The translations under genes and the position numbers were made by a program. Positions 11,141-41,676 of a stretch of 64,000 nucleotides of DNA are shown piece by piece. The first letter of the stretch is position 1. Every line of letters begins with the position of its first letter. The stretch is from assembly GCA_042572045.1 (NCBI GenBank), contig JBHPFI010000003.1, forward strand, positions 6,342 to 70,341, read 5' to 3'. The DNA is from Candidatus Omnitrophota bacterium. Its GTDB lineage: Bacteria > Omnitrophota > Gorgyraeia > Gorgyraeales > Gorgyraeaceae. Under the pieces are notes generated by a model. That model was not told where the DNA came from, ran no database searches, and saw only the letters and a list, made by a program, of their open reading frames with translations.

Positions 11141-11192
11141 GGCAGGATCTTAATAAGGGGCTTTGCCTCGAACAAAAACCTGGAGGTGGATA

Positions 11193-12902
11193 TTGAAAAA
11201 GGTTCCTAGCGATCTTGAGATTGCGCAAGCTGCAAAGATAAAACCCATCCTTGAAATCGCCCGTCAGATAGGAATAAAAGAAGACTATCTGGAGCTGTAC
11301 GGAAAATATAAGGCCAAGATATCCCTTTCTGTTTTGGACCACCTGAAAGATAAACCACAAGGAAAATTTATAGACGTTACCGCGATTACGCCTACGCCTC
11401 TAGGAGAAGGCAAGACCGTGACCACCATAGGTCTGAGCCTGGGACTTGCAAAGATCGGTAAAAGCGTCATAACAACTCTAAGGCAGCCCTCTATGGGGCC
11501 TGTGTTTGGAATAAAAGGAGGGGCAGCAGGTGGAGGGTATTCTCAGGTTTTGCCTATGGAAGATATTAATCTACATTTCACGGGGGACATCCATGCAGTA
11601 GGCGCGGCAAATAACCTCCTTGCGGCATTTATCGACAATCATTTATTAAAAGGGAACAAGCTCGACATAGACCCGGATTCAATTGTTGTCAGAAGGGTAG
11701 TTGATATAAGCGACAGGGCATTACGCCAGATCAGGATCGGTCTTGGCGGAAAAGAAAACGGCGTGCCCAGGGACACCGGATTTGATATAACAGTTGCAAG
11801 TGAAGTAATGGCAATACTTGCCTTAACAACAGGCCTGGATGATTTGAGAAAAAGATTAGGGAGAATGGTGGTTGCCTCTACTAAGGCAGGCAGGGCTGTT
11901 ACCGCAGAGGATTTAAAATGCGCGGGAGCGATGACCGTGCTTTTAAAAGATGCCATAAAGCCAAATCTTATTCAAACTACGGAGAACACGCCTTGCATTA
12001 TGCATGCAGGCCCTTTTGCCAACATTGCTCACGGAAACAATTCTGTGTTGGCCGACCTCATAGCTTTAAGGCTCGCGGATTACGTGGTAACTGAAAGCGG
12101 CTTTGGGGCTGATTGCGGGGCAGAGAAATTTTTGGATATAAAATGCAGGGCCAAAGGCCTTAAGCCACCTGATGGCATAGTGCTTGTATGCACTGTAAAG
12201 GCGCTGAAGATGCATGGAGGCGCCTTCCAAGCCATTCCTGGAAGGCCAATGGACATGGAGCTAGTGAAAAAAGAAAATGTAGAGGCAGTAATAAAAGGCT
12301 CGGGGAATCTTGTAAAGCATATAGAAAACTTAAAGTTGTTCGGCGTGCCGGTAGTGGTTGCTGTAAATAAATTTCTCTATGACGCCGAGAGGGAGATAAA
12401 TGCAATAAAAGATATAGCCAAAAAAGCGGGCGCAATGGATGTTGTTTTGAGCGAGGTCTGGGAAAAAGGCGGAGAAGGCGGAAAGGATCTGGCAAGGGCC
12501 GTAGTCAAGATGTGCGAACAAAAATCTAATTTTAAATTCCTATACGAGCTAGACTTGCCTATAAAAGAAAAGATAGAAAAAATCGCGAAAAAGATTTACG
12601 GGGCTAAGGGCGTAGAGTATTCGGAGGAGGCTGAAAAGAAAATAGCTTGTTACACAAAACTGGGCTATGATAAATTGCCTATAAACATGGCAAAGACCCA
12701 TCTTTCACTTTCGCATGACCCTAGCTTAAAAGGAAGGCCCGAAGGCTTTACCCTTCCGGTCAGGGATATCAGGATTTCAGCAGGCGCAGGATTTTTGTAT
12801 CCATTGTGCGGAACAATGCGCACTATGCCAGGCTTACCGTCAGTACCCGCTGGAACAAAGGTGGATATAGACAAAGACGGGAAAGTGGCAGGGCTATTTT
12901 AA
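11193..12902 (+). CDS. fhs: formate--tetrahydrofolate ligase
   Basis: PTPLGEGKTVTTIGL nucleotide loop, full-length similarity to FTHFS. TTG at 11193 is preceded by GGAGGTGG. Confidence 0.95.
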   Translation: MKKVPSDLEIAQAAKIKPILEIARQIGIKEDYLELYGKYKAKISLSVLDHLKDKPQGKFIDVTAITPTPLGEGKTVTTIGLSLGLAKIGKSVITTLRQPSMGPVFGIKGGAAGGGYSQVLPMEDINLHFTGDIHAVGAANNLLAAFIDNHLLKGNKLDIDPDSIVVRRVVDISDRALRQIRIGLGGKENGVPRDTGFDITVASEVMAILALTTGLDDLRKRLGRMVVASTKAGRAVTAEDLKCAGAMTVLLKDAIKPNLIQTTENTPCIMHAGPFANIAHGNNSVLADLIALRLADYVVTESGFGADCGAEKFLDIKCRAKGLKPPDGIVLVCTVKALKMHGGAFQAIPGRPMDMELVKKENVEAVIKGSGNLVKHIENLKLFGVPVVVAVNKFLYDAEREINAIKDIAKKAGAMDVVLSEVWEKGGEGGKDLARAVVKMCEQKSNFKFLYELDLPIKEKIEKIAKKIYGAKGVEYSEEAEKKIACYTKLGYDKLPINMAKTHLSLSHDPSLKGRPEGFTLPVRDIRISAGAGFLYPLCGTMRTMPGLPSVPAGTKVDIDKDGKVAGLF

Positions 12903-13501
12903 TGTACATTTCCGGATCCATTAAAAGATACGTTGAAGATCTGGCGGCTCGTAAACCAGCGCCAGGAGGGGGAAGCGCTGCGGCTTTTTCAGGAGCGCTT
13001 GGGGTAGCGTTACTTGAGATGGTGTGCAACTTCACGCTTGGAAACGAAAAATATAAAGACCTTGGAGTGGACATGCAAACTTACCTCGCATCTTTAAGGA
13101 AGATAGAAAAAGAGTTTTGTTCATTAATAGACGATGATGTAAAATGCTATTCGGTTATACGAGATGCCTTTAAGTCAAAAGATAAAAAAGTTATTGATAA
13201 GGCCCTAAAAGACGGCTATCGTACCTCTTTAAAAACATGCAAGGTATCTATCGAGGCCTTGAAAATAGCTGTCTTGCTCCCGGAAAAAGGCAACCCCAAC
13301 TTAATAACAGATGTTGGCTGTGGCGCTGAGCTCTTAGAGGCCTCTTTTAACTCCGGAATTTTTAATGCTGAGATAAACCTAAAAGGCTTAGAGGATGAGG
13401 ATTTTATAAAAAAAGAACGGGCTTTGCTGGAAGAAATAAAAAAAGAAAGTACTTTTTTATACAAGGACGCGATAAGTAAAACCCAAAATAAAATGAGGTG
13501 A
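12902..13501 (+). CDS. fchA: methenyl-THF cyclohydrolase / cyclodeaminase-family protein (FchA-like)
   Basis: RKPAPGGGSAAAFSGALG motif. ATG shares one base with the fhs stop (TAATG). Confidence 0.85.
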   Translation: MYISGSIKRYVEDLAARKPAPGGGSAAAFSGALGVALLEMVCNFTLGNEKYKDLGVDMQTYLASLRKIEKEFCSLIDDDVKCYSVIRDAFKSKDKKVIDKALKDGYRTSLKTCKVSIEALKIAVLLPEKGNPNLITDVGCGAELLEASFNSGIFNAEINLKGLEDEDFIKKERALLEEIKKESTFLYKDAISKTQNKMR

Positions 13502-13503
13502 CC

Positions 13504-14364
13504 ATGGCTGCAAGTCTCTTGGACGGAAAAACCCTTTCAAAAAACATCAAGGAAGAAATAAAAAAAGAGGTCGAGCTTCTAAAAACAAAATACAATAAAA
13601 CGCCTAAATTGGTCAGTATCCAGGTTGGCGAGAACCCTGCCTCAGAGGTATATTTGAAATCCCAGAAAAAAAACGCTGAAAACCTCAGCATAGAATACCG
13701 CCTTGAGAAGTTAGACCAAAAGATATCTCAGGATGAGCTTGTAAAGGTAATCGACGGGTTTAACAAGGATAAATCAGTAAACGGTATCATGATTCAGATG
13801 CCGCTTCCTTCCCAGGTAGACGCTAAATTGATTTCGCGATATATATGTCCTTTAAAGGATGTTGAGGCTGTGCACCCTGAGAACATGGGGGAGATCGTGT
13901 TTGGAAACGCAAAGATCTTGCCGTGCACAGCTGCCAGCTGCATGGAGCTTTTGAATTCAATAGAATCGCTTGAGCTGTACGGAAAGGAAGTGGTTATCGT
14001 CGGTCACAGCGAAATAGTTGGAAAACCATTGGCATTAATGCTCTTGAATAAATTTGCCACTACCACTGTCTGTCATATCGCGACTGGCGAAAGGGGTAGG
14101 CTTCCGGAATTTGTTAAAAACGCGGAGATATTGGTCGTGGCCGTTGGTAAGGCAGAACTTATCAAAGGCGAATGGGTGAAGGATGGCGCTATTGTAATTG
14201 ATGTTGGGATAAACAGGGTTGAGGGAAAGCTCGTAGGCGATGTAGAATTTGACAGCGCTCAGGAAAAGGCTTCTTATATTACCCCTGTGCCGGGCGGCGT
14301 AGGACCGCTGACTGTGGCAATATTAATGAAAAATCTTGTGACGGCATATAAACTACAACAATAA
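13504..14364 (+). CDS. folD: bifunctional methylene-THF dehydrogenase / methenyl-THF cyclohydrolase
   Basis: LLDGK N-terminus, PVPGGVGPLTVA C-terminal motif. ATG 13504 follows GAGGTGA. Confidence 0.95.
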   Translation: MAASLLDGKTLSKNIKEEIKKEVELLKTKYNKTPKLVSIQVGENPASEVYLKSQKKNAENLSIEYRLEKLDQKISQDELVKVIDGFNKDKSVNGIMIQMPLPSQVDAKLISRYICPLKDVEAVHPENMGEIVFGNAKILPCTAASCMELLNSIESLELYGKEVVIVGHSEIVGKPLALMLLNKFATTTVCHIATGERGRLPEFVKNAEILVVAVGKAELIKGEWVKDGAIVIDVGINRVEGKLVGDVEFDSAQEKASYITPVPGGVGPLTVAILMKNLVTAYKLQQ

Positions 14365-14376
14365 GAGGTGTGTAAA

Positions 14377-15243
14377 ATGTCCTTATGCGATAAAACCAAA
14401 GCAGGAAAATTCATCCTTACCTCTGAGATAGGCCCGCCAAAAGGCACTGACATCGAAGAGGTGTTAAAAGACGCCCTCCTTATCAAAGACAGGGTAGATG
14501 CCGTAAACGTGACTGACCTGCAGAGTTCTGTCATGCGCGTTGGGTCTTTGGCCATCTGCAAACTTTTGATAGAACGCGGGATAGAGCCTGTATTTCAGAT
14601 TACCTGCAGAGACAGGAACAGGCTCGCCCTGCAATCAGATCTCTTGTCCGCATCTGTTTTTGGGATAAAGAATGTGCTGGCGCTCACAGGGGATCATCCT
14701 GCTCTTGGCGACCATCCGCAGGCAAAGCCTGTGTTTGACATGGATTCAGTGCAGTTGCTTGATGCAATCAGGGGACTGGCCTCAGGAAAAGATATGGCAG
14801 GAAAAGAATTAAAAGGCTCTCCTGAATTCTGCGTAGGAGCGGTTGTGAACCCCGGGGCCGACCCAATAGAACCCGAGATCATAAAGATGGAAAAAAAGAT
14901 TGATAGGGGCGCGCAGTTTTTTCAGACCCAGGCGATTTACGATATAGATTTATTTAAAAAATTTATGGAGGCCACAGGGCATTTAAAAACCACGATTATC
15001 GCGGGCATTGTGCTTTTAAAATCCGCCGGCATGGCCAGATTTATGAACAAAAACGTCAGCGGGGTGTTCGTGCCCGATCACCTTATAGAGGAAATGGACA
15101 AGACGCAGGATAAGAGCGCCAAGTCGATAGAGATAGCGGCGCGGCTTATAAAGGAACTCAAGCCCATGTGTCAGGGCATTCACGTCATGCCCATTGGGTG
15201 GGATAAGAAGGTCCCTTTGGTCCTTGACGCAGCTGGATTATGA
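14377..15243 (+). CDS. metF: methylenetetrahydrofolate reductase, acetogen/anaerobe type
   Basis: TSEIGPPKG, ALTGDHP, FFQTQAIYD blocks typical of MetF of anaerobes. ATG 14377 follows AGAGG. Confidence 0.85.
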   Translation: MSLCDKTKAGKFILTSEIGPPKGTDIEEVLKDALLIKDRVDAVNVTDLQSSVMRVGSLAICKLLIERGIEPVFQITCRDRNRLALQSDLLSASVFGIKNVLALTGDHPALGDHPQAKPVFDMDSVQLLDAIRGLASGKDMAGKELKGSPEFCVGAVVNPGADPIEPEIIKMEKKIDRGAQFFQTQAIYDIDLFKKFMEATGHLKTTIIAGIVLLKSAGMARFMNKNVSGVFVPDHLIEEMDKTQDKSAKSIEIAARLIKELKPMCQGIHVMPIGWDKKVPLVLDAAGL

Positions 15244-15974
15244 AAATAGCCATTACTGGAAAAGGCGGCGCGGGAAAGACTTCTATTGCGGCAGGGCTTG
15301 CTTTTATTTTTAGAGATCAAGGCAAGAAGGTAATAGCGATAGATGCCGACCCTGATGCAAACCTTGCGACAGCGATAGGGCTTCCTGAAAGGCCTACGCC
15401 GATCGCTGAATTAAAAAAAATAATACTTGAGCGCACGGGAGAAGTCGGCGCATTTTTTAAGCTGAACCCCAAGGTAGACGATATCCCGGATAAATTTTCA
15501 AAACTTTATAACGGCATCAGGCTTATAGAGATGGGGACTGTAAAAAAAGGCGGGAGCGGTTGCGTTTGTCCGGAAAGCGCATTTCTAAAGGCATTGTTGA
15601 GTCATGTATTTTTAAACAGGGATGAAGTTATCGTGGTGGATATGGAGGCCGGGGTAGAGCACTTAGGAAGAGGTACGGCTGGGGCAGTGGATAAATTTAT
15701 AATAGCGGTAGAGCCGAATTTTACATCGCTGGATACTGCCAGCAAGATAAAAAATCTGGCTGAGAATTTGAAAGTGAAAGAGGTATTTGTCATAGGGAAC
15801 AAGATCCGTTCCGGCCAGGACAAGGATTTTATAAATAAGAATATAAAGGGCTTGAGGGTCGAAGGGTTTATAGACCTGGATGAAAATCTTTTAGCTGCAA
15901 GAGGCGCCCTGCCGAGTGATTCGCAATTCATAAAAGATCTGGAGGAGGTCATAAATGTCAAAACCAACGGGTAA
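15240..15974 (+). CDS. cooC: CODH nickel-insertion accessory ATPase CooC
   Basis: P-loop GKGGAGKT and metal-binding C-x-C (GSGCVCPE). 4-nt overlap with metF. Confidence 0.9.
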   Translation: MKIAITGKGGAGKTSIAAGLAFIFRDQGKKVIAIDADPDANLATAIGLPERPTPIAELKKIILERTGEVGAFFKLNPKVDDIPDKFSKLYNGIRLIEMGTVKKGGSGCVCPESAFLKALLSHVFLNRDEVIVVDMEAGVEHLGRGTAGAVDKFIIAVEPNFTSLDTASKIKNLAENLKVKEVFVIGNKIRSGQDKDFINKNIKGLRVEGFIDLDENLLAARGALPSDSQFIKDLEEVINVKTNG

Positions 15975-17877
15975 TCCTGTAAATGATAAGCTGATAGAAC
16001 TTGCCAAAAAGAACAACATCGCTACAGTATGGGATCGCTTTGCAGAGCAGGAACCGCAATGCGGTTTTGGTGCGCTAGGGGTGTGTTGCAAGATATGTAA
16101 TCTGGGCCCTTGTCGCATAGACCCATTTGGTGAGGGCGCACAAGTCGGTACATGCGGGGCAGATGCCGATATCATAGCCGCGAGAAACCTTGTACGCAAC
16201 GCTGCTGCGGGCGCCGCGTGTCACTCTGATCACGGCCGTGATCTTGCCAGGACTTTACTTGAATTAGGCAGGGGGCAGGCAAAGGATTATCAGATAAAAG
16301 ACCCAAAAAAATTACGAACCATGGCTCAAGAGTTTGGATTAAAGATAGATGGCAAAAATGACCTTAAGATAGCTGAAGAATTAGGTGAAAAGATCTTGAA
16401 GGAATTCGGCAATCAGGAAGGCGAACTCACGCTTCTCAAGAGAGCTCCAAAAAAACAGCGTGAAAACTGGAAAAAATTTAACGTGACTCCTGTAGGCATT
16501 GATATAGAAGTGGTCCAGGCTCTCTCGCGTACTCATATAGGGTGCGATAACGAATATAAACATGTGACTGAGCAGGGTATCAAAGCATCGCTTGCAGACG
16601 GCTGGGGCGGGTCCATGATAGCGACTGACCTTAGCGACATCCTTTTTGGCTCACCGCAGCCTATACGCGCGGAAGTAAATCTCGGCGTATTAAAAGAAGA
16701 CGAGGTGAATATTTTGGTCCATGGGCATGAGCCCACATTGTCAGACATGATAGTTACTGCCAGTCAAGACAAGGAAATCAGAGAGCTGGCAAAGAAAAGC
16801 GGCGCAAAAGGTATTAACCTTGCGGGCATATGTTGTACTGCCGCAGAGATTTTGATGAGGCATGGCATGCCTATGGCAGGAGGCTTCCTGCAGCAGGAGC
16901 TGGCAATAATTACGGGCGCAGTCGAAGCAATGGTCGTGGACATACAATGCATCATGCCTTCGCTTTCAGAGGTTGCCAAAAATTACCACACAAAACTCAT
17001 CTCTACTTCGCCAAAGGCAAAGTTTAAAGGAATAGAGCATATTGAGTTTCATGAAAAAGAGGCACTAAAAATCGCTAAAAAGATCTTGACCGAGGCTATT
17101 GAAAATTATAAAAATAGAGACAAGACCAAGGTGAATATCCCCAAAGAAAAAATGACTATCGTGGCTGGGTTTACCATGGAAAATGTCTTTTACAATCTCG
17201 GAGGCACTTTTAGAGGCACCTACAGGCCTCTCAATGACGCGATAATAAGCGGAAGGATAAGGGGCGTAGCAGGCGTTGTAGGTTGCGATAACCCTAAAAA
17301 TGAATCAAGCATGTGCCACGCTGATATGGTAAAACACCTTATAAAGAATGACGTGCTTGTAGTACAGACAGGTTGCTCTGCTGGCGCGTGCGGAAAGGCA
17401 GGGCTTTTGACGCCTGAGGCCGCATTTAAATATGCGGGGGACGGGCTTAAGGAGATCTGCGAAACAGTCGGCATACCGCCAATACTTCACACAGGTTCCT
17501 GTGTTGATAACACGAGGATCTTAACGGCATGCTGTGAAATGGTAAAAGAAGGCGGTATTGGCGCTAGCATTGACGAACTTCCTGTTGCAGGCGCAGCGCC
17601 CGAGTGGATGTCAGAAAAGGCAATAGCAATAGGGTGGTATTTTGTTACATCAGGCATTTTTGTCGTTATAGGCTCTCCTTTAAGGGTCCTTGGCAGCAAG
17701 AATGTCTCAAACTATATCTGTAATGAGATCGAGCCTATGTTTGGCGGTAAATGGGCATTTGAAAGCGATCCTGTAAAGGCAGCGCAACTTATGATCGAAC
17801 ATATTAATAAGAAGCGCGAGGCGCTTAAACTTGGGTCTATGATGTATGCTGAGGCAACAGTTGGAGCAAGGACATGA
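15955..17877 (+). CDS. acsA: anaerobic Ni,Fe carbon-monoxide dehydrogenase catalytic subunit (CooS/AcsA)
   Basis: N-terminal B/D-cluster cysteines CGFGALGVCCKICNLGPCR, 640 aa, conserved HGHEP and GSCVDN blocks. Confidence 0.95.
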   Translation: MSKPTGNPVNDKLIELAKKNNIATVWDRFAEQEPQCGFGALGVCCKICNLGPCRIDPFGEGAQVGTCGADADIIAARNLVRNAAAGAACHSDHGRDLARTLLELGRGQAKDYQIKDPKKLRTMAQEFGLKIDGKNDLKIAEELGEKILKEFGNQEGELTLLKRAPKKQRENWKKFNVTPVGIDIEVVQALSRTHIGCDNEYKHVTEQGIKASLADGWGGSMIATDLSDILFGSPQPIRAEVNLGVLKEDEVNILVHGHEPTLSDMIVTASQDKEIRELAKKSGAKGINLAGICCTAAEILMRHGMPMAGGFLQQELAIITGAVEAMVVDIQCIMPSLSEVAKNYHTKLISTSPKAKFKGIEHIEFHEKEALKIAKKILTEAIENYKNRDKTKVNIPKEKMTIVAGFTMENVFYNLGGTFRGTYRPLNDAIISGRIRGVAGVVGCDNPKNESSMCHADMVKHLIKNDVLVVQTGCSAGACGKAGLLTPEAAFKYAGDGLKEICETVGIPPILHTGSCVDNTRILTACCEMVKEGGIGASIDELPVAGAAPEWMSEKAIAIGWYFVTSGIFVVIGSPLRVLGSKNVSNYICNEIEPMFGGKWAFESDPVKAAQLMIEHINKKREALKLGSMMYAEATVGART

Positions 17878-18389
17878 AAGGGATCATTGTAATTGATCCG
17901 AAAAAATGTTTGGCATGCAGGACCTGTGAGCTTCAATGCGCAATAGCGCATTCGGAGTCAAAGGACCTGGCAAAGGCAATTTGTGAAGACCCTCTTCCTC
18001 AGACAAGGGTCAAGGTCGAGGGAATGGATGATTTAGCAATGCCTCTACAATGTCGGCACTGTGAAGATGCGCCTTGTGTTAAGATCTGTCCGACAGAAGC
18101 CACGATAAAATCAGAAGACGGCGGGCCCGTCCTGATAAAAGACAAGCTCTGCATCGGGTGCAAGTGGTGCGTACTGGTCTGTCCGTTTGGCGTGATTCGC
18201 ATGGCTAGAGGAGGCGCAGCTGTAACCAAATGCGACCTCTGCTTTGAAAGGCTTGAAAAAGGCGAAGCGCCTGCATGCGTAGCAGCGTGTCCGAGCAAGG
18301 CCATGCAGTTTAAGTCCATAGAAGAGGTATCCAAAGGCAAGAAAAGAGAGTATTTGGTCAAATTCAAAAAGGAGAAAGAGCTGATCTAA
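17874..18389 (+). CDS. CooF-like polyferredoxin with four CxxCxxCxxxCP-type motifs
   Basis: CLACRTCELQC, CRHCEDAPCVKICP, CIGCKWCVLVCP, CDLCF...ACVAACP. 4-nt overlap with acsA. Confidence 0.85.
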   Translation: MKGIIVIDPKKCLACRTCELQCAIAHSESKDLAKAICEDPLPQTRVKVEGMDDLAMPLQCRHCEDAPCVKICPTEATIKSEDGGPVLIKDKLCIGCKWCVLVCPFGVIRMARGGAAVTKCDLCFERLEKGEAPACVAACPSKAMQFKSIEEVSKGKKREYLVKFKKEKELI

Positions 18390-18844
18390 TGGCAAAGACC
18401 AGGGAATCTGAAAAAGTCGATGTGATTTGCATGCTGCAGGAGATCCAAAATAAACATAATTATCTGCCAAAAAAAGATCTTGAGCGCATAACAAAAAAAT
18501 TAAACATCCCCCTCAGTCAGACCTATAGCCTGGCTACATTTTATAAGGCGTTTAGCCTGAAGCCGCGCGGCAAGTTTTTGATCTCTGTATGCATGGGGAC
18601 TGCGTGTCATGTGCGCGGAGCCGAGAAGATCCTGGGTGAAATTCAAAGGACGCTAAAGATAAAACCTGGCCAAACATCAGAAGACCAGAAATTTACACTA
18701 GAGACTGTTAATTGTTTAGGGGCTTGCGCATTAGGCCCCTTAATGGTGGTTAATGGTGAATATTATGGCAGCATGAATGCCAAAAAGGTAAGCGCAGTTT
18801 TGAAAAAATATATTGCTCAAAAGAAAAATGCCCAAAAAAGCTAA
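18389..18844 (+). CDS. NuoE/HydC-like thioredoxin-fold [2Fe-2S] protein
   Basis: CMGTACHVRG ... CLGACALGP cysteine pattern. ATG overlaps the upstream stop by 1 nt. Confidence 0.85.
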   Translation: MAKTRESEKVDVICMLQEIQNKHNYLPKKDLERITKKLNIPLSQTYSLATFYKAFSLKPRGKFLISVCMGTACHVRGAEKILGEIQRTLKIKPGQTSEDQKFTLETVNCLGACALGPLMVVNGEYYGSMNAKKVSAVLKKYIAQKKNAQKS

Positions 18845-20636
18845 AAAATCTGCTTTATCCAAAAAAGATTCTGACAAGCCTTGTATTGCGATATGCAAAG
18901 GCACAGGATGTTCTGTATCCGGCGCGGCTGGACTGGAAGAGGCATTCAAGAAAGAGATAGCTGTAAAAAAGATATCTCAAAAGGTGACTGTCCGCACCAC
19001 TGGTTGCCATGGGTTCTGTGAAAGAGGTCCGGTGGTCGTGATACATCCAAGCAAGATCTTTTATCAGAGAGTACAAGCAAAAGATGCGCCAGATATAATC
19101 CAGACAACGATCATCGAAAATAAAACAGTCGATCGCTTATTATATAAAGATCCGGCAACCGGAGAAAAAATAACCCATGAACATGAAATACCTTTTTATA
19201 AAAAACAGCTAAGGCTTATTTTTGGCAATAATGGCAAGATCGATCCTACACAGATCGAAGATTATATCGCAATAGGCGGCTATAGCTCCCTATCTAAAGC
19301 AAGAACCAAGATGTCTTCTGAGGCGGTGATTGAGGAAATAAAAAATTCTGGATTGCGAGGTCGTGGTGGCGGCGGCTTTCCTACTGGCAGAAAATGGGAA
19401 TCATGCTACAAAGCCGAAGGCAAAATTAAATATGTGATCTGTAATGCGGATGAAGGGGATCCTGGCACTTTTCAGGATAGGAGCATTCTTGAAGGAAATC
19501 CTCATGCTGTCATAGAGGGCATGCTGATAGGCGCCTATAGTGTTGGAGCAAAAGAAGGCTATATATATGTGCGCAATGAATATCCTTTGGCAATAAAACA
19601 CGTTGAGATCGCCTTGCGCCAGGCGCGAGAACACGGGTTCCTTGGTAAGGATTTTAATATTTACATACAGAGGGGCGGAGGCGCATTTGTATGCGGTGAG
19701 TCCTCTGCATTAATGGCTTCCATAGAAGGCAGGCTTGGTGAGCCCAGATTTAAGCATGCTCATGCAACTGAAAAGGGTCTTTGGGACAGGCCTACGACTT
19801 TAAATAATGTTAAGACATGGGCAGCTGTGCCATTGATCATAAATAAAGGCGCTAGGTGGTTTGCAAAGATAGGGACTGAAAAAAGCAAAGGCACAATGAT
19901 ATTTTCTCTGGTAGGAAATATTAATAATACCGGCCTCGTTGAAGTGCCAATGGGCATAACATTGCGCAAGTTGATCTATGAAATAGGTGGCGGCATACCC
20001 GGCGGAAAAAAACTAAAGGCGGTCCAGACAGGCGGCCCATCAGGCGGATGTATTCCAGAAAAACTATTGGACCTGCCAGTAGACTATGAAAGACTGTCTG
20101 ATGCAGGCTCAATGATGGGGTCCGGCGGCATGATAGTCATGGATGAGGCCACCTGCATGGTCAATATAGCCAGGTACTTTTTATCGTTTACCATAAATGA
20201 ATCCTGCGGAAAATGCACGCCCTGTCGCGAAGGCACAACTCATATGTTAGATACGCTTACCAGGATTACTAAGGGCCAGGGAATAACTGGAGACGTTGAG
20301 CTCCTAGAGGAATTAGGAAACTTGACCAAGGCAACTTCTTTGTGCGCATTGGGTAAAAGCGCGCCAAACCCTGTATTGACTACTATAAAATATTTTCGCG
20401 ACGAGTATGAATCGCATATCAATGATAAAAAATGTCCAGCTGGCACCTGTACCGCGCTGATACAGTATTCTATCGATGAATCCAGGTGCACTGGCTGCGG
20501 TGTTTGCAAAAACGAATGTCCTGAAAAGGTTATTTCCGGAGAAAAGAAAAAGAAACATAAGATAGACCAGCTTAAGTGCATTAAATGCGGAATCTGCAAC
20601 GACGTCTGTAAATTCGAGGCTGTCAAGATATCATGA
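18828..20636 (+). CDS. NuoF/HydB-like NAD(P)H-binding FMN flavoprotein with N-terminal 2Fe-2S domain and C-terminal 2x[4Fe-4S] domain
   Basis: CKGTGC...GCHGFCERGP (N-terminal 2Fe-2S), GLRGRGGGGFPTGRKW (FMN), ESCGKCTPCREG, C-terminal CTGCGVCKNECP + CIKCGICNDVC. Start could be 18813 or 18828. Confidence 0.85.
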   Translation: MPKKAKKSALSKKDSDKPCIAICKGTGCSVSGAAGLEEAFKKEIAVKKISQKVTVRTTGCHGFCERGPVVVIHPSKIFYQRVQAKDAPDIIQTTIIENKTVDRLLYKDPATGEKITHEHEIPFYKKQLRLIFGNNGKIDPTQIEDYIAIGGYSSLSKARTKMSSEAVIEEIKNSGLRGRGGGGFPTGRKWESCYKAEGKIKYVICNADEGDPGTFQDRSILEGNPHAVIEGMLIGAYSVGAKEGYIYVRNEYPLAIKHVEIALRQAREHGFLGKDFNIYIQRGGGAFVCGESSALMASIEGRLGEPRFKHAHATEKGLWDRPTTLNNVKTWAAVPLIINKGARWFAKIGTEKSKGTMIFSLVGNINNTGLVEVPMGITLRKLIYEIGGGIPGGKKLKAVQTGGPSGGCIPEKLLDLPVDYERLSDAGSMMGSGGMIVMDEATCMVNIARYFLSFTINESCGKCTPCREGTTHMLDTLTRITKGQGITGDVELLEELGNLTKATSLCALGKSAPNPVLTTIKYFRDEYESHINDKKCPAGTCTALIQYSIDESRCTGCGVCKNECPEKVISGEKKKKHKIDQLKCIKCGICNDVCKFEAVKIS

Positions 20637-21415
20637 AGACAAATAAAATGATAAAGATAACCATTGATGACAGGCAAGTAGAGGTCGCCTCCGGCGCGAC
20701 TATATTAGAGGTAGCGAATAGTTTAGGCATAGACATACCTACCTTGTGTCATCACGAGGCGCTTGAGCCTTATGGTGCGTGCCGGGTCTGTCAGGTCGAG
20801 ATAGTTACACCCAGGCGCTCGAGCGTTATTACCGCGTGCACTTACCCGGTATGGGACGGGCTTATTATAAAGACTGAATCGGAAAAGGCAAAAACGGCCC
20901 GGAAATTTGTCGTGGAGCTTTTACTGGCGCGCTGCCCAAACTCAGAAAGGATACAGAAACTTGCAAAAGACATGGGTGTTGAGGCGAAAAGATTAAAGAG
21001 CGCGAATGAAAAGGAAGAGTGTGTCCTTTGCGGACTCTGCGTACGCGCATGTAAGGATATAATATGTAAAAGCGCTATTAGTTTTGTAAGTCGCGGCGCG
21101 GACAGGAAGATTGATACACCGTTCGCAGAGCATTCTGAGGACTGTATTGGGTGCGGCGCATGCGCATTTGTCTGCCCTACAGGCGCGATAAAGATGGAGG
21201 ATATACTAAAGGTACGCAAAATACATGACCGTAAGACAGAGCTTGAGCTGGCCGGTTGCAAGTGTTGCGGCGCCAGATTTGCCACTATAAAAGAATTAGA
21301 CCATCTTAAAGGGAAAATAGATATACTTCAGGACATATTCGAACTTTGTGAAAATTGCAGACGTAAAAAATTAAAAGAAAAAATATCTAAAGTGGAGGGG
21401 GCATGTCAAAGATAA
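20633..21415 (+). CDS. short FeS protein resembling only the N-terminal [2Fe-2S]+2x[4Fe-4S] part of HydA/NuoG/FdhA, with no catalytic domain
   Basis: CHHEALEPYGACRVCQVE, CVLCGLCVRAC, CIGCGACAFVCPTGA, plus a Cys-rich tail CKCCG...CENC. 260 aa; ATGA overlap with the NuoF-like gene. Confidence 0.75.
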   Translation: MKTNKMIKITIDDRQVEVASGATILEVANSLGIDIPTLCHHEALEPYGACRVCQVEIVTPRRSSVITACTYPVWDGLIIKTESEKAKTARKFVVELLLARCPNSERIQKLAKDMGVEAKRLKSANEKEECVLCGLCVRACKDIICKSAISFVSRGADRKIDTPFAEHSEDCIGCGACAFVCPTGAIKMEDILKVRKIHDRKTELELAGCKCCGARFATIKELDHLKGKIDILQDIFELCENCRRKKLKEKISKVEGACQR

Positions 21416-23580
21416 TTGCATCAGCTGCCATAAGAGGCGCGCAAAAAATTTACAAAGAGGCAGAGGATTTTCTGAATAAGGCAATTAAAGAAAAGAACGA
21501 AGACTGCGAGGTCAAATTTCCAGAGACCGCTTTTTATTTCCCAATGGCCTACGCTCTTCTTGGGAAAGAAGTGAAGACTCTCGCAGAGGCCAAAGAGGTG
21601 CTGCAGTTTTCAAAGACGCTCCTCCATGATGAACCTACTGAAAAGATATGGCTGCCTTATCTGGGGGATACTCTGGATTCAGGTGTCGCAACGTTATTGT
21701 GCGAAGAGATCATAATGGCATTACGATACCTATATAACCAGGAGCCACAGAAGGACTGTAATGGTTTTTTCTCAGACACCATTCTGCGCACACTTGGTAT
21801 TCAGCTTGTGGATGGAAGAATGCCAGGATTCGCAGCTATTTTAGGCGCAGCGCCTGACAATAAGACCGCTGTTAATATTGTACGCGAGCTTCAAAAACGC
21901 AGCATAATGACATTTATTGGTAGTTCAGTAAATGACCGAAGTATTATTGACCAGCTCATAGAAGAGAAGGTAGAGATGGGATGGGATACCTATATAGTAC
22001 CCTATGGCAGGGATAGCTTGAGCGCAATATATCCTTTAAACTGGGCAATTCGCGGCGCTCTTACATTTGGTGGCCATAAAAAAGGGGAGGCGCTTAAATG
22101 CCTGAAGTATTGTAAAGACAGGGTGTTTGCGTTTGGCATGGTTTTGGGCGAGTTGGATGATATAAAATACGCAACTGGCGCAGGCGCTATAAATATGGGA
22201 TTTCCTATCATAGCCGATACTAATATTCCTGAGATACGACCAACCGGCATATGTACCTATGAACACGTGATAAAAGAGCTAGACCACAAAAAAATAGTCC
22301 CGACAGCTATTGAATTAAGGGGAATAAAATTAAAGGTCTCAGAGATACCGATACCTGTGTCTTATTCTCCGGCGTTTGAAGGCGAACGCGTTAGACGCGA
22401 GCAAATGTTTGCGCAATTTGGCGGCAAATATTCAACCGCATTTGAATATGTCAAAATGGTGGGTGCGGATAAGATAGAGGATGGCAAGATCGAAGTCATT
22501 GGTCCGGAAGTGGACGATATCAAAGAAGGAGACGCTGCTCCTTTAGGAATAGTCGCAGAGGTCGCCGGCAGAAAGATGCAAAAGGATTTTGAACCTATAC
22601 TGGAGAGACAGATGCACAGCTTCTTGAATGAAGCGATGGGCATATTCCACATGGGCCAGAGAGACATGTGCTGGATAAGGATCTCCAAGGACGCAAAAGA
22701 TAAAGGGTTAAAACTCAAACATTTTGGCGTAATACTGCATGCGCGTTTTCACGATGTGTTCAGCGCGATAGCTGATAAAGTGCAGGTAACGATTTACACA
22801 AAACAGGAAGATGTGGAGAAAAAAATAAAAGAGGCGCAAAAATCATATAATGAAAGAGACGCGCGCGTTGCAGGCATGACAGATGAAAACGTTGATTTAT
22901 TCTGGACATGCACGCTTTGTCAGAGTTTTGCGCCAAACCATCTTTGTATAATAAAACCTGAAAGGATCGGATTGTGCGGAGCGTACAACTGGCTGGACGC
23001 CAAGGCGTCTTATGAGTTGAATCCGACAGGGCCCAATCAGCCTATCAAAAAAGGGGAATGCCTTGATCCTGTAAAAGGCGAGTGGAAAGGCGTGAATGAA
23101 ATTCTATCGCAGAAATCCAATCGCACGCTTGAGAGGTTTTGCGGATATTCTATCATAGATTCACCTGAGACCAGCTGCGGGTGCTTTGAATGCATAATAG
23201 CCATATTGCCGGAGGTAAACGGGTTTATGGTGGTAAACAGGGAATACGCGGGCGCAACGCCGGCTGGCATGGGCTTTTCAACCCTGGCAGGAACAATCGG
23301 CGGGGGTCAGCAAACTCCGGGTTTCATGGGCATAGGAAGGCTTTATATCACAAGTAAAAAATTTATCTCTGCGGAAGGCGGTATTAAAAGAATAGTATGG
23401 ATGCCCAAGGAGCTAAAAGAGGCGCTTAGCGATAAACTAAAAGAACGAGGCAAGGAATTGGGAGAGCCTGACTTAATAAATAAAATAGCAGATGAGACAG
23501 TAGCTACGTCTAGTGAAGAGCTATTGCCTTATCTAGAGAAGGTCGGCCATCCAGCATTGACAATGGAAGTAGTAATGTAA
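21403..23580 (+). CDS. acsB: acetyl-CoA synthase (A-cluster subunit, AcsB/CdhC type)
   Basis: 725 aa. A-cluster ligands WTCTLCQSFAPNHLC and Cys-Gly-Cys (SCGCFECI). Confidence 0.95.
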   Translation: MSKIIASAAIRGAQKIYKEAEDFLNKAIKEKNEDCEVKFPETAFYFPMAYALLGKEVKTLAEAKEVLQFSKTLLHDEPTEKIWLPYLGDTLDSGVATLLCEEIIMALRYLYNQEPQKDCNGFFSDTILRTLGIQLVDGRMPGFAAILGAAPDNKTAVNIVRELQKRSIMTFIGSSVNDRSIIDQLIEEKVEMGWDTYIVPYGRDSLSAIYPLNWAIRGALTFGGHKKGEALKCLKYCKDRVFAFGMVLGELDDIKYATGAGAINMGFPIIADTNIPEIRPTGICTYEHVIKELDHKKIVPTAIELRGIKLKVSEIPIPVSYSPAFEGERVRREQMFAQFGGKYSTAFEYVKMVGADKIEDGKIEVIGPEVDDIKEGDAAPLGIVAEVAGRKMQKDFEPILERQMHSFLNEAMGIFHMGQRDMCWIRISKDAKDKGLKLKHFGVILHARFHDVFSAIADKVQVTIYTKQEDVEKKIKEAQKSYNERDARVAGMTDENVDLFWTCTLCQSFAPNHLCIIKPERIGLCGAYNWLDAKASYELNPTGPNQPIKKGECLDPVKGEWKGVNEILSQKSNRTLERFCGYSIIDSPETSCGCFECIIAILPEVNGFMVVNREYAGATPAGMGFSTLAGTIGGGQQTPGFMGIGRLYITSKKFISAEGGIKRIVWMPKELKEALSDKLKERGKELGEPDLINKIADETVATSSEELLPYLEKVGHPALTMEVVM

Positions 23581-23753: not shown

Positions 23754-25097
23754 ATGGCTCTATCGGGTTTAGATATTTACAAATTGCTACCAAAGACAAA
23801 CTGCAAAAAGTGCGGTTCGCCGACATGTCTTGCCTTTGCGATGAAGCTGGCAATGAAAAAGACATCTCTGGATCAATGCCCTGATATTTCAGAAGAAGCA
23901 AAGGCTTCTCTGGCTCAGGCTTCACGTCCGCCTATCGCGACGATAACTATTGGTTCGGGCGACAACAAAGTAGAAACAGGAGGGGAAACGGTTTTATTCA
24001 GGCATGAAAAAACCTTTTATCATCAGACCGCGATAGCAATAAGCGTAGAGGACACGCTTTCCGATTCTGAATTAACAGAAAAGGTTAAATCAATAGAAGG
24101 GCTTAGCTTTGAAAGAGTCGGCCAGCATATTGAGATTGACATGATAGCCCTGGTCAATACCAGCGCATCCAGCGAAAAATTTATCAATACGCTGGATAAA
24201 CTTGTTGCTGCCTCGGGTAAACCGATAATATTGATAAGCGACAACGTAAAGGCGATCGAAGATGCCCTGAAAAAATATCCTGACAAGAAACCTTTGATAT
24301 ATGCGGCAACGAGCGCCAATTTAAAAGACATGTCTCGGATAGCAAAGAGCTATAAGGCACCGCTCGCCTTAAAAGCCGATGGATTAGAGGAGCTTGACAA
24401 GCTTTCTCAGGAAGCAGCCTCGTCAGGCATAGAGGAGTTGGTTTTAGACCCAAACCCGTCAACGCTAAACCAGGCCATAAATGATTTTACTCAGATCAGA
24501 AGGCTCTGTCTGAAAAAAAATTACCGGGCCTTTGGTTATCCCATTATCGCATTTGTAAAGAGCAAGGAAAAATACCAGATGGTGCAGGAGGCGTCTACCT
24601 TTATCGCAAAATACGCGAGCTTAATCGTGATAGATTCTTTAGACAAAGAGGTGTTGCTTCCGGTCGTCACCCTGCGGCAGAATATTTATACAGACCCGCA
24701 GAAGCCGGTTACTGTTGAGCCAAAACTGTACGCCTTTGGCGCGGTTGACAAAAATTCGCCCGTTATGGTAACGACTAATTTTTCCCTTACATTTTATACT
24801 GTCTCGCCTGAGATAGAGGCAAGTAAAAATCCGGCATATCTTCTTGTCACGGATTCAGAAGGCATGAGTGTTCTTACGGCGTGGGCAGCGGAAAAATTTA
24901 CGCCAGAAGGTATATCCGAGTCAATGAAAAAATTCGACGTAGAAAGCGCGGTTTCGCATAAAAAAATCATTATTCCCGGGTATGTCTCGGTCTTGAGCGG
25001 AAAACTGGAGGACGCTTCTGGATGGCAGGTGCTTGTAGGCCCTAAAGAGGCGTCGGGCCTGCCAAAGTATTTGAAAGAGGTTTGGACTAAATCATGA
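23754..25097 (+). CDS. acsC: corrinoid iron-sulfur protein large subunit
   Basis: N-terminal [4Fe-4S] motif LPKTNCKKCGSPTCLAFA, 447 aa. Confidence 0.9.
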   Translation: MALSGLDIYKLLPKTNCKKCGSPTCLAFAMKLAMKKTSLDQCPDISEEAKASLAQASRPPIATITIGSGDNKVETGGETVLFRHEKTFYHQTAIAISVEDTLSDSELTEKVKSIEGLSFERVGQHIEIDMIALVNTSASSEKFINTLDKLVAASGKPIILISDNVKAIEDALKKYPDKKPLIYAATSANLKDMSRIAKSYKAPLALKADGLEELDKLSQEAASSGIEELVLDPNPSTLNQAINDFTQIRRLCLKKNYRAFGYPIIAFVKSKEKYQMVQEASTFIAKYASLIVIDSLDKEVLLPVVTLRQNIYTDPQKPVTVEPKLYAFGAVDKNSPVMVTTNFSLTFYTVSPEIEASKNPAYLLVTDSEGMSVLTAWAAEKFTPEGISESMKKFDVESAVSHKKIIIPGYVSVLSGKLEDASGWQVLVGPKEASGLPKYLKEVWTKS

Positions 25098-39697: not shown

Positions 39698-39726
39698 TTG
39701 ACCGTCCCTTTTTACCATGTTAAAAT
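39698..39726 (+). promoter_or_regulatory. sigma70-like promoter upstream of acsV
   Basis: TTGACC-N17-TAAAAT. The acsV ATG is only 11 nt after the -10 and has no SD. Confidence 0.6.
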
Positions 39727-39736
39727 TCTATTTATT

Positions 39737-41668: not shown

Positions 41669-41676
41669 GCCTCTAT

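Follow-up and report, generated by a model that had tools for sequence, protein, structure and literature searches.

A putative Type 2 Bfu module between the CODH and acetyl-CoA synthase genes of an Omnitrophota bacterium

Why are four redox genes placed between the gene of a Ni,Fe-CO dehydrogenase (CODH) and that of acetyl-CoA synthase (ACS)? This question is raised by a DNA stretch of 64,000 nucleotides from a Candidatus Omnitrophota bacterium (GCA_042572045.1, contig JBHPFI010000003.1), referred to here as the window. The four genes, encoding a CooF-like polyferredoxin, BfuC, BfuB and BfuA, are located between acsA (cooS) and acsB (Table 1). In our view they rather probably form a Type 2 Bfu module (BfuABC plus a CooF/WorS-like protein), with the Ni,Fe-CODH of the flanking CODH/ACS as its third catalytic partner. 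The position of the module implies that it takes part in either the synthesis or the cleavage of acetyl-CoA.

Gene arrangement in the window

The open reading frames lie exactly where the preliminary description had placed them, and the four redox genes are translationally coupled. The overlaps along cooS, the genes for the CooF-like, NuoE-like (BfuC), NuoF-like (BfuB) and short FeS protein (BfuA), and acsB are 4, 1, 17-32, 4 and 13 nt. Domains of the locus genes were assigned by Pfam and NCBIfam. The only CODH gene of the operon is cooS, the product of which has CODH chains as its best PDB matches (6t7j_B, 3.4e-200; next come chains filed as CODH/ACS components, e.g. 9fzy_B). AcsB contains the N-terminal CODH-binding domain (Pfam CODH_A_N). 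The position of cooC upstream of cooS is conserved in L081, L003, L024, L086 and L088. The methyl-branch genes are located directly upstream in one gene string with the CODH/ACS genes; metF is not accompanied by metV.

Table 1. Wood-Ljungdahl and redox genes in the window, with positions, strand and supporting matches.
Feature	Position	Strand	Evidence
Methyl-branch genes fhs, fchA, folD, metF	11163..15243	+	Pfam FTHFS, FTCD_C, THF_DHG_CYH, MTHFR
cooC, Ni-insertion ATPase for CODH	15240..15974	+	Pfam CbiA/AAA_31/Fer4_NifH
acsA/cooS, Ni,Fe-CODH catalytic subunit	15955..17877	+	Prismane E 4.9e-170; TIGR01702 666 bits (cut-off 478)
CooF-like polyferredoxin, 4x[4Fe-4S], WorS/HycB homologue, 171 aa	17874..18389	+	Fer4_11 E 1.3e-24
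BfuC (NuoE/HydC-like), [2Fe-2S] C1 cluster, 151 aa	18389..18844	+	2Fe-2S_thioredx E 5.2e-48
BfuB (extended NuoF/HydB-like), FMN and NAD(H) sites	18813..20636	+	Complex1_51K + SLBB + NADH_4Fe-4S
Type 2 (WorA-type) BfuA, 260 aa, without catalytic domain	20633..21415	+	9mqx_A E 3.5e-50
acsB, acetyl-CoA synthase (A-cluster subunit)	21403..23580	+	CODH_A_N + CdhC + ACS_CODH_B_C; NF040764 1037 bits (cut-off 800)
acsC, corrinoid Fe-S protein large subunit	23754..25097	+	FeS + CdhD, E 2.6e-112
Second Wood-Ljungdahl cluster: RACo, second cooC/acsF-like ATPase, acsD, acsE	39698..44280	+	Pfam RACo domains, CbiA, CdhD, Pterin_bind

Composition of the module

BfuC contains the CxxxxC...CxxxC motif and matches best HydC (8a6t_C, 1.8e-43) and WorC (9mqx_C, 5e-35). 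BfuB comprises 607 aa if translation begins at a TTG codon, and about 602 aa if it begins at the ATG at 18828. Pfam and NCBIfam agree with the preliminary description that it carries a 2Fe-2S_thioredx-like [2Fe-2S] domain at the N terminus and a 2x[4Fe-4S] domain at the C terminus, and that the 260-aa protein has no catalytic domain. The ligands of the clusters B1-B5 are all present. Over its full length BfuB matches the B subunits of bifurcating enzymes (7t2r_B, 8.5e-235; 9mqx_B, 3.7e-229; 7q4v_B, 1.4e-224) and is about 60% identical to these and to 8a6t_B (E 1e-217 to 1e-235), whereas the non-bifurcating NuoF, FdsB and Nqo1 match over the core only (about 1e-109 to 1e-115). A place in a non-bifurcating clade was not found, and the assignment as Bfu-type BfuB is supported. 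In the FMN/NADH pocket, T219 and Q221 (DPGTFQDR) deviate from the Bfu consensus DPGAFMDR, whose A202 and M204 in A. mobile are Bfu-specific according to Schut et al. (PMC9304861). The corresponding residues of a short non-Bfu NuoF from a related locus read GTFKDR, making the motif of the window's BfuB intermediate. We put forward bifurcation by this module as a hypothesis.

The CooF-like protein has 16 cysteines in four CxxCxxCxxxC-type motifs, read directly from its sequence. It matches HycB3/HycB4 (7qv7, E 5e-28) and, over its full length, WorS (9mqx_E, E 9e-22).

The 260-aa protein is similar to WorA. It contains only Fer2_4 and 2x[4Fe-4S] domains, and neither an H-cluster nor a molybdopterin or GltD domain was detected by Pfam and NCBIfam. 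Its sequence indicates an A1 [2Fe-2S] cluster, A2 and A4 [4Fe-4S] clusters and a Cys4 zinc finger. Residues 7-250 align to WorA (9mqx_A). Among 81 homologues compared, the 16 cysteines are invariant and the A3 motif is missing, i.e. the His-ligated A3/N5 cluster of NuoG and HydA is absent. The AF2 model (pLDDT 91.5, with a helix at 240-259) has 9mqx_A as its top Foldseek match (TM 0.86/0.90, rmsd 1.8 A), the next-best match reaching a TMq of 0.64. This match includes the zinc finger of WorA and its polyferredoxin-recruiting C-terminal helix. The preliminary description had correctly recognized an FeS-only protein, but its kinship to HydA/NuoG does not extend to the A3/N5 cluster, and the CKCCG...CENC tail is the counterpart of WorA's four-Cys zinc finger and adaptor helix, not a further FeS site. 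Its matches to HydA, NuoG and FdhA are confined to their N-terminal third, as could be the case for a hydrogenase or FDH subunit cut short by truncation or by faulty assembly. This explanation can be regarded as refuted, with practically no probability left to it: the 120 best homologues are all 237-286 aa long, the 16 cysteines are invariant across 81 sequences, the full-length match is to a solved 247-aa protein, and an independent MAG shows the identical organisation.

The tail co-occurs with the polyferredoxin. At least 13 aa follow the last CxxC of BfuA in all 14 scored loci with a CooF-like neighbour, and at most 5 aa in all 19 scored Por-Bfu loci without one (Fisher p = 3e-7, calculated on all 44 loci that were scored). 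The window's BfuA has a tail of 18 aa.

The partner of the module

The six-gene order, which was to be checked in related genomes, is conserved. The identical order is present, with 73-88% protein identity, in another Omnitrophota MAG (L081, GCA_042570105.1). About a dozen loci carry the module embedded inside CODH/ACS operons in three gene-order permutations; they derive from MAGs of Omnitrophota, Elusimicrobiota, Firestonebacteria, Chloroflexota (Anaerolineales), Clostridia and unclassified bacteria. The order cooS-cooF-bfuCBA-acsB is found in the window, L081, L082, L084, L088, L086, L003 and L024, cooF-bfuCBA-cooS-acsB in L001 and cooS..acsB-cooF-bfuCBA-acsC in L018. Stand-alone cooF-cooS-bfuCBA loci are L017, L063 and L087. 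In Bathyarchaeia, a cdhA...cdhCDE operon encodes BfuB and the CODH/ACS epsilon subunit domain (PF02552) as one fused protein, and at least 27 protein clusters show this fusion. Both the embedding inside CODH/ACS operons and the fusion appear to be new. However, cooF-bfuCBA also occurs as an orphan (L092) and beside PFOR (L093) or AOR (L094), so that adjacency is informative but does not prove the partnership.

The co-occurrence of adaptor tail and CooF-like protein, together with the cooS/acsB gene order conserved across phyla, speaks for the suggested CooS/CooF partnership, and the Bfu-type BfuB and WorA-type BfuA favour the idea that the third site is supplied in trans by CooS via the CooF-like protein. 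We therefore propose CooS as the candidate third catalytic site. None of the three outcomes which the preliminary description had listed as contradicting its reading was found in the comparisons of sequence, gene order and single-chain model.

The same proteins could also form a non-bifurcating CO:NAD+ (or NADH:CO2) oxidoreductase, wired to CODH by CooF, in which electrons simply move between CODH and NAD(H), much as they probably do in CooS-CooF-FNOR systems, while the ferredoxin domain is an optional second outlet and coupling is not obligatory. The replacement of A202/M204 by T/Q would fit, the threonine being the residue of a non-Bfu NuoF; CO is reducing enough for both acceptors (Table 1 of PMC9304861), and it is well established that CooS-CooF-FNOR contexts hand electrons from CO on to NAD(P)+ (PMC11338639). 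We nevertheless consider this unlikely, as the ligands of B2-B5 and C1 are fully conserved while non-bifurcating homologues lack B2-B5 (Schut 2022), and every one of the closest relatives of solved structure is bifurcating. WorABCSL, which also uses a very low-potential substrate, reportedly reduces neither NAD+ nor ferredoxin without the other. A CooF-BfuABC cassette that is autonomous and merely co-transcribed, either with its partner elsewhere or as an NADH:ferredoxin-type oxidoreductase filling or draining the CODH/ACS ferredoxin pool, is improbable. The orphan locus and the cassettes beside PFOR or AOR are in line with it, as is the polyphyly of the BfuB lineages tied to CODH/ACS in an NJ tree, suggesting a mobile module. 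Yet the insertion between acsA and acsB with gene overlaps, the recurrence of this embedding across phyla in three permutations and the physical association indicated by the archaeal BfuB-CdhB fusion argue against it, and BfuABC without a third substrate would catalyse no net reaction under the Bfu model (PMC9304861).

NuoF-like proteins serve methylene-THF reductase in some acetogens (RnfC2 in A. woodii). The trio and CooF might be the electron input of the MetV-less MetF encoded two genes upstream, giving an NADH/ferredoxin-dependent methylene-THF reductase and not a CODH partner, as the preliminary description had suggested as an alternative. MetF is encoded in the same gene string, metV is absent from the window and L081, and in a spirochaete locus (L075) metF is directly upstream of bfuCBA. 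But metF is not conserved beside the module, being absent nearby in L001, L003, L018, L024, L086, L087 and L088. In relatives, MetF is accompanied by MetV and by redox genes of its own, namely a separate HoxU-like/NuoE/short-NuoF trio in L082 and the adjoining HoxYH in L084, while cooS-cooF-bfuCBA-acsB is intact in both. Furthermore, a MetV-less MetF would probably lack any FeS cluster that could take up electrons delivered by such a wire of FeS clusters. This assignment is very improbable.

For the favoured Bfu module with CODH as third partner, we infer a physical complex in which the zinc finger and C-terminal helix of BfuA would dock CooF, and CooF would act as a wire from the CODH D-cluster to BfuA. 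Electrons could pass from the C-cluster of CODH via its B- and D-clusters and the four [4Fe-4S] clusters of CooF to A4, A2 and A1 of BfuA and then to B1/FMN of BfuB. The FMN would couple them to NAD(H), the presumed nucleotide, and via C1 of BfuC and B2-B4 of BfuB to ferredoxin. Either direction may be physiological. During acetyl-CoA formation, NADH and reduced ferredoxin would jointly reduce CO2 to enzyme-bound CO (confurcation), feasible because ACS holds CO very low. During acetyl-CoA cleavage, CO would be oxidised and NAD+ and ferredoxin reduced together. With a CO/CO2 standard potential of -520 mV, CO could reduce NAD+ and ferredoxin uncoupled, and the need for bifurcation therefore hinges on the assumed very low CO. 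The module suggests a CODH/ACS powered partly by NADH and not by ferredoxin alone which, if true, would alter the energy balance of the most ancient carbon-fixation pathway known.

Comparison with known systems

The preliminary description knew of no characterised enzyme of such composition, but an analogous one has been structurally characterised and a CODH variant published as a hypothesis. The former is WorABCSL (PDB 9MQX; Feng et al. 2025, PMC12318220), a tungsten-containing, electron-bifurcating aldehyde oxidoreductase from Acetomicrobium mobile, in which the zinc finger and C-terminal helix of WorA recruit the polyferredoxin WorS and electrons follow S4-A4-A2-A1 (PMC12318220). It shares with the window the BfuABC core with the same cofactor ligands, a short BfuA (247 aa vs 260 aa) with Cys4 zinc finger and C-terminal adaptor helix but without A3 and A5, and a 4x[4Fe-4S] polyferredoxin of about 150-170 aa (WorS; here CooF) joining a separate catalytic subunit to A4. 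In contrast, its partner is the tungstopterin protein WorL instead of a Ni,Fe-CODH itself paired with ACS, and the WorB pocket reads DPGAFMDR and not DPGTFQDR.

Codh-Bfu (Schut 2022, PMC9304861), or CodhABCSF (Feng 2025, PMC12318220), is a purely bioinformatic hypothesis, named as hypothetical by its own authors, and was never purified. It was based on four sequences "only in Firmicutes" (Acetohalobium arabaticum, Clostridium cellulovorans; S. silvacetica was named later) and proposed for stand-alone CODHs as a CO-oxidising or detoxifying enzyme (PMC9304861; PMC12318220). It likewise combines BfuABC with CooS and CooF, with CO/CO2 as third substrate entering through A4, and this independent prediction of the architecture speaks for the reading favoured here. 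In two of its genomes, however, the Codh genes are located between bfuB and bfuA, whereas here the module lies between acsA and acsB, in a Wood-Ljungdahl operon of Omnitrophota and other uncultured phyla. In the Sporomusa Wood-Ljungdahl cluster as listed, acsA and acsB are not separated by Bfu genes (PMC12003927).

HydABC, NiFe-HydABCSL and NfnABC, members of the Bfu family whose structures are solved (7P5H, 7Q4V, 8A6T, 7T2R, 9N5U), show the same FMN, B1-B5 and C1 architecture, but their BfuA has a catalytic or remnant C-terminal domain with A5, absent here. In NiFe-Bfu, BfuA connects to the hydrogenase by A3, which the window's BfuA lacks. The HoxEFU diaphorase of bidirectional [NiFe] hydrogenases is also a NuoE/NuoF/short-NuoG-like trio with its catalytic site, HoxYH, in trans and with HoxU as a separate FeS protein of some 240 aa. 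The window proteins score far below the NCBIfam cut-offs for HoxU (114 vs 333) and HoxE (138 vs 224). HoxU-type proteins carry the A3 cluster domain (e.g. NADH-G_4Fe-4S_3 in a 225-aa protein of L082) missing in the window's BfuA, and HoxF-type flavoproteins are without the FeS extensions that its BfuB has at both termini. In CooS-CooF-FNOR and CooS-CooF-Ech, cooF also follows cooS directly and CO-derived electrons are passed to a partner oxidoreductase. There, the partner is an FAD-NAD(P) oxidoreductase or a membrane hydrogenase, whereas in the window it would be a Bfu-type FMN/FeS core, and the CODH is the ACS-associated one.

Gene order and composition of the redox module

The preliminary description had placed four redox genes, chained to each other and to their neighbours, between acsA and acsB, and every element of this was borne out by the ORF coordinates and overlaps. 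According to ORF calls and Pfam/NCBIfam matches, one tight gene string on the plus strand of the window, a chromosomal stretch of a Candidatus Omnitrophota MAG, reads fhs-fchA-folD-metF-cooC-cooS-cooF-bfuC-bfuB-bfuA-acsB-acsC. The genes cooS, cooF and bfuABC are contiguous, and the six central genes from cooS to acsB overlap by 4, 1, 17-32, 4 and 13 nt. BfuA of the window is identical to NCBI MFC1666619.1. A promoter and terminator scan of the operon yielded counts at shuffle level.

Wood-Ljungdahl genes and redox module genes in the window
Feature	Position	Strand	Remarks
fhs	11163-12902	+	
fchA	12806-13501	+	as called from first GTG
folD	between fchA and metF	+	
metF, without metV	14368-15243	+	
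cooC	15240-15974	+	
acsA/cooS	15955-17877	+	TIGR01702 666 bits (cut-off 478)
CooF-like polyferredoxin, 171 aa	17874-18389	+	
NuoE-like BfuC, 151 aa	18389-18844	+	2Fe-2S_thioredx E 5.2e-48
extended NuoF-like BfuB, 607 aa	18813-20636	+	
260-aa FeS protein BfuA	20633-21415	+	
acsB	21403-23580	+	CODH_A_N, CdhC and ACS_CODH_B_C; NF040764 1037 bits (cut-off 800)
acsC	23754-25097	+	
RACo, second cooC-like gene, acsD, acsE (remaining carbonyl-branch genes)	39698-44280		

The Wood-Ljungdahl genes are split, the block of RACo, second cooC, acsD and acsE lying 14.6 kb downstream of acsC behind housekeeping genes (pgsA-like, der, plsY, a helicase, trpBA and others). Read from its first GTG, the fchA ORF shares 97 nt with the end of fhs. 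Its true start is probably located further downstream, since the homologue of a second Omnitrophota MAG (locus L081, GCA_042570105.1) has 199 aa compared to 231 aa here.

Along its entire length, BfuB shares about 60% identity with the B subunits of bifurcating Bfu enzymes of known structure. It matched NiFe-HydABCSL (7t2r_B, E 8.5e-235) and the bifurcating aldehyde oxidoreductase WorABCSL (9mqx_B, 3.7e-229), and HydABC (7q4v_B, 8a6t_B), too; the non-bifurcating NuoF, Nqo1 and FdsB match its core only (about 1e-110). Schut et al. characterise BfuB by Nuo51 FMN-binding, SLBB and NADH_4Fe-4S domains plus an extra 4Fe-4S ferredoxin domain, and state that the clusters B2-B5 are absent from non-bifurcating homologues (PMC9304861). 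The window protein exhibits this domain set (Complex1_51K, SLBB, NADH_4Fe-4S and Fer4/Fer4_7 at residues 553-604) and the ligands of B1 (C465, C468, C471, C511), B2 (C448, H535, C541, C546), B3 and B4 (C559/562/565/569 and C589/592/595/599) and B5 (C28, C33, C65, C69), all five sites being conserved in an alignment of 76 BfuB sequences including three PDB references. BfuC contains the motif CMGTAC...CLGAC of the [2Fe-2S] cluster C1 and matches HydC (8a6t_C, E 1.8e-43). The full-length matches to bifurcating B subunits, the complete ligands and the HydC match support the HydABC/Bfu-like combination of NuoE with an extended NuoF that had been proposed for this locus.

BfuA showed an end-to-end match to one solved chain, WorA (9mqx_A, 247 aa, E 3.5e-50). 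In a Foldseek search with an AlphaFold model built on an 81-sequence alignment (pLDDT 91.5), the same chain came first (TM 0.86/0.90, rmsd 1.8 A, 246 columns), followed by the N-terminal part of HydA (TMq 0.64); an earlier AF2 model from 14 sequences (pLDDT 65.6) was not used for the fold search. Sixteen Cys are invariant in 81 homologues, four for the [2Fe-2S] cluster A1, eight for the [4Fe-4S] clusters A2 and A4 and four in a CxxC...CxxC motif. Neither the His-ligated A3 motif (HxxxCxxCxxxxxC) nor a match to NADH-G_4Fe-4S_3 or any further domain was detected in BfuA. BfuA has A1, A2 and A4 and lacks A3, A5 and a catalytic domain; that the third catalytic domain is missing, as noticed before, agrees with the WorA-type full-length match and with the lack of any domain past the FeS region. 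The four Cys of the last motif (C209, C212, C239, C242) align to the zinc-finger Cys of WorA, and the model has a helix at 240-259. BfuA is therefore predicted to possess a Cys4 zinc finger and a C-terminal adaptor helix like WorA. In WorABCSL the Cys4 zinc finger buttresses the C-terminal helix, which recruits WorS, and electrons pass via S4-A4-A2-A1 to the bifurcating core (PMC12318220).

The CooF-like protein, with 16 Cys in four cluster motifs, matches WorS over its full length (9mqx_E, E 9e-22) as well as the HDCR nanowire subunits HycB3 and HycB4, so that the module includes a gene for a WorS-like 4x[4Fe-4S] polyferredoxin. In the 'Type 2' Bfu enzymes of Schut et al., BfuA is without A3 and A5, and the third catalytic site resides on extra subunits reached via A4 (PMC9304861). 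From the identities of BfuB, BfuC, BfuA and the CooF-like protein the locus is therefore a 'Type 2' Bfu module. The profile and structure searches suggested in the preliminary description (Pfam, PDB, Foldseek) place all four proteins as WorABCSL/HydABC-like.

Two other assignments were rejected. A truncated hydrogenase or FDH subunit is ruled out by the end-to-end WorA match and the 16 Cys invariant in 81 homologues. Against a HoxEFU diaphorase speak the scores for HoxU (114 bits, cut-off 333) and HoxE (138 bits, cut-off 224) and the absence of the A3 motif, the A3 cluster being a feature of HoxU-type subunits.

The catalytic partner of the module

We consider it rather probable that the module is wired to CODH/ACS, because synteny, an adaptor rule, a Rosetta-stone fusion and the CODH-binding domain of AcsB all point to CODH(/ACS) as the partner. 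The window shows the features of a bifunctional CODH/ACS, i.e. an AcsB with an N-terminal CODH-binding domain and A-cluster domains (Pfam), and cooS as the sole CODH gene of the operon. The order cooS-cooF-bfuC-bfuB-bfuA-acsB-acsC is kept in the homologous loci L081, L082, L084 and L088 (BfuA identity 73%, 62%, 56% and 51%, respectively) and, despite two inserted genes, in an Elusimicrobiota MAG (L086). Among the matches listed for species-representative genomes, a Clostridia MAG (L003) and an unclassified bacterium (L024) have the same order; the conservation from cooS to acsB in relatives, a check proposed earlier, thus holds. An Anaerolineales locus (L001) reads cooF-bfuCBA-cooS-acsB, and two Firestonebacteria loci (L018, L014) read cooS...acsB-cooF-bfuCBA-acsC. 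With three permutations interleaving the module with acs genes, a single chance insertion is hard to accept. Three Chloroflexota loci (L017, L063, L087) have a stand-alone cooF-cooS-bfuCBA set without ACS. A metagenome contig search with a single protein gave three loci, of which one, a bfuB-bfuA-acsB fragment (L089), was informative.

In L086 (GCA_040757695.1; positions 7585-9639 and 13245-16365), bfuB and bfuA are separated by a gene for a retropepsin-like aspartic protease, and bfuA and acsB by one for a methyltransferase; downstream of acsB there are two more CooF/WorS-like genes and a gene of the AOR family. In one relative, AcsB (L084:10765-14415 and L085:3390-7040; 1216 aa) contains an intein (Intein_splicing and LAGLIDADG_3) within ACS_CODH_B_C.

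According to Feng et al., the zinc finger is retained in the BfuA proteins of Por-Bfu enzymes, whereas the C-terminal helix and a WorS homologue are missing (PMC12318220). Among the loci that could be scored, the tail after the last CxxC comprised at least 13 aa wherever a CooF-like neighbour was present (14/14; 18 aa in the window) and at most 5 aa in all 19 Por-Bfu loci without CooF (Fisher p = 3e-7, full table of 44 scored loci); the Dehalococcoidia loci were confirmed as Por-Bfu by Pfam.

In a Bathyarchaeia MAG (CAYGJP010000013.1, L043:7469-11811), BfuA, BfuC and BfuB are encoded inside a cdhA...cdhC-cdhD-cdhE operon. Here the C-terminus of BfuB (814 aa) is joined to PF02552, the epsilon subunit domain of CODH/ACS, and BfuA (473 aa) is fused to an FrhB/FdhB-like F420-type domain, both fusions lying between cdhA and cdhC. 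The BfuB-CdhB fusion (812-825 aa) forms at least 27 protein clusters, assigned to Bathyarchaeota wherever named. As tblastn with bacterial CooS misses archaeal CdhA, the homologous loci were re-screened with archaeal CODH queries, which revealed no further cases. Synteny, adaptor rule and fusion thus favour the central idea of the preliminary description, CooS as partner via the CooF-like protein.

The CooF-bfuCBA cassette is a mobile 'plug'. It occurs without any catalytic neighbour (L092:4083-7759), immediately ahead of a gene for a single-chain PFOR (more than 1158 aa; L093:4106-11317) and beside an AOR (L094), and for this reason adjacency alone falls short of proof. The CooF proteins of L092 and L093 are 56-59% identical to that of the window. 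L093 represents a Por-Bfu variant with CooF, in contrast to the Por-Bfu of Dehalococcoidia, which has none. In a neighbour-joining (NJ) tree of BfuB, the window groups with L081, L082, L084, L085, L018 and L024 (bootstrap 93%). Two ACS-linked loci, L003 and L043, never fell into this clade and L001 did so in 38% of the replicates only, which suggests, on an NJ basis, several independent recruitments of the module to CODH/ACS. The window BfuB groups with Por-/Wor-linked BfuBs and not with the reference for NiFe-Bfu (clade 49, which includes the Codh sub-clade of Firmicutes such as Acetohalobium, C. cellulovorans and Sporomusa) in this tree, whose deep nodes are unsupported.

Alternatively, the module might feed electrons to the MetV-less MetF, as had been considered before; indeed, metV was detected neither beside metF nor elsewhere in the 64-kb segment. 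Against this, metF lies beside the module in one further case only among the genome loci listed, a spirochaete (L075). Furthermore, MetV-MetF is preceded by separate redox genes in L082 and L084, while cooS-cooF-bfuCBA-acsB is intact in both, so that the Bfu module is unlikely to be the MetF partner. In L082 (368-4247) these encode a HoxU-like protein (225 aa) with an A3-cluster domain, a NuoE (136 aa) and a short non-Bfu NuoF (398 aa), and look as though they form a separate module for NADH input to methylene-THF reductase. In L084 (756-5180) HoxY-HoxH-HycI (NiFe hydrogenase subunits of group 3 type, with no HoxEFU of their own) are encoded directly upstream of MetV-MetF; H2-linked methylene-THF reduction or a shared diaphorase is a possibility there.

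With CODH/ACS as the preferred partner, it might still be that the enzyme is non-bifurcating or differently tuned. Schut et al. describe A202 and M204 (motif DPGAFMDR) in the FMN/NADH pocket as Bfu-specific (PMC9304861). Neither residue is present in the window BfuB, which has T219 and Q221 instead (DPGTFQDR, window 19467-19475, residues 219-221); our comparison covers these two positions, F182 of the same study having no match in PDB numbering. Among 76 BfuB sequences, A was found in 70 and M in 63. The change from M to Q occurs in six of the seven members of the window's BfuB clade, and in the 76-sequence alignment that from A to T is confined to the window and L081. The short non-Bfu NuoF of L082 has T and K here (GTFKDR). 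By its sequence, the window BfuB is thus intermediate at this pocket, which makes a non-bifurcating or differently tuned enzyme possible. The full Bfu domain set and the clusters B1-B5 described for BfuB are present as well, and we rate true bifurcation by the predicted complex at somewhat below an even chance.

Proposed mechanism and energetics

Gene content, cofactor ligands, homology of structure and conserved gene order are observed, and the following docking, route and coupling are our inference. CooF would bind both the BfuA helix and the CooS dimer, the latter at the face where the D-cluster is exposed, and electrons would move from the C-cluster via B, D, the four CooF clusters, A4, A2 and A1 to B1/FMN. 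As in other Bfu enzymes, FMN would couple them to NAD(H) and, via C1 and B2-B4, to ferredoxin.

For E'(NAD) and E'(Fd), values of about -280 mV and -500 mV, respectively, are given (PMC9304861). By our arithmetic, NADH and reduced ferredoxin together have a mean donor potential of about -390 mV. The CO2/CO couple has an E0' of -520 mV, and its potential becomes about 30 mV more positive with each tenfold decrease in CO/CO2. According to our estimate from these potentials, confurcation of NADH and reduced ferredoxin onto CO2 is therefore feasible at CO/CO2 below roughly 1e-4 to 1e-5. Such low ratios are plausible if CO is channelled to and consumed at ACS. A low-concentration argument was likewise used by Schut et al. 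for Wor-, Por- and Codh-Bfu (PMC9304861).

As a tentative proposal, which we regard as possible rather than probable, CODH/ACS of Omnitrophota and several other uncultured anaerobic lineages may not be a ferredoxin-only enzyme, but one AcsB-CooS-CooF-BfuABC supercomplex. It would confurcate NADH and reduced ferredoxin for the reduction of CO2 to tunnel-bound CO and, in the cleavage direction, bifurcate CO electrons to give NADH and reduced ferredoxin. Half of the ferredoxin that the carbonyl branch requires would thereby be replaced by NADH, and acetogenesis close to the thermodynamic limit would give more ATP. The module would have been recruited independently several times, including the Bathyarchaeia BfuB-epsilon fusion.

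Relation to known systems

To our knowledge, Wood-Ljungdahl energy balances all charge the reduction of CO2 to CO at CODH/ACS with one reduced ferredoxin, the costliest reductant of the cell. If the carbonyl branch were half NADH-driven, ATP yield, H2 threshold and reversibility (acetogenesis vs acetate oxidation) would change. This would apply to uncultured subsurface and sediment Omnitrophota, Elusimicrobiota, Firestonebacteria, Chloroflexota and possibly Bathyarchaeia. The loci supply defined gene sets for heterologous expression.

Concerning previous reports, the Wood-Ljungdahl cluster of Sporomusa is listed with acsA and acsB and no Bfu genes between them (PMC12003927), and one MAG study remarks in passing on a nuoEF set close to the CODH/ACS cluster (PMC6305446). 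In our literature search, which was incomplete in coverage and yields absence of evidence only, no description of a Bfu/NuoEF module embedded in a CODH/ACS operon was found.

Among characterised enzymes, WorABCSL is the closest; the 'plug plus FeS wire' idea of bifurcation would be extended from aldehyde oxidation to the enzyme at the centre of the acetyl-CoA pathway. As a concept, the hypothetical, unpurified Codh-Bfu/CodhABCSF comes closest, which was deduced from four Firmicutes sequences and regarded as a stand-alone CO-oxidising or detoxifying enzyme (PMC9304861, PMC12318220). Like it, the window has cooS and cooF contiguous with bfuABC. The composition BfuABC, CooS and CooF, for which the preliminary description knew no precedent, is therefore already predicted, and this hypothetical class would gain a physiological setting that is both concrete and widespread. 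What appears to be unreported is the link to ACS, the spread over five bacterial phyla or more, and the BfuB-CdhB fusion of archaea; taken together, these move the proposed role away from CO scavenging and into the core of acetyl-CoA synthesis and cleavage.
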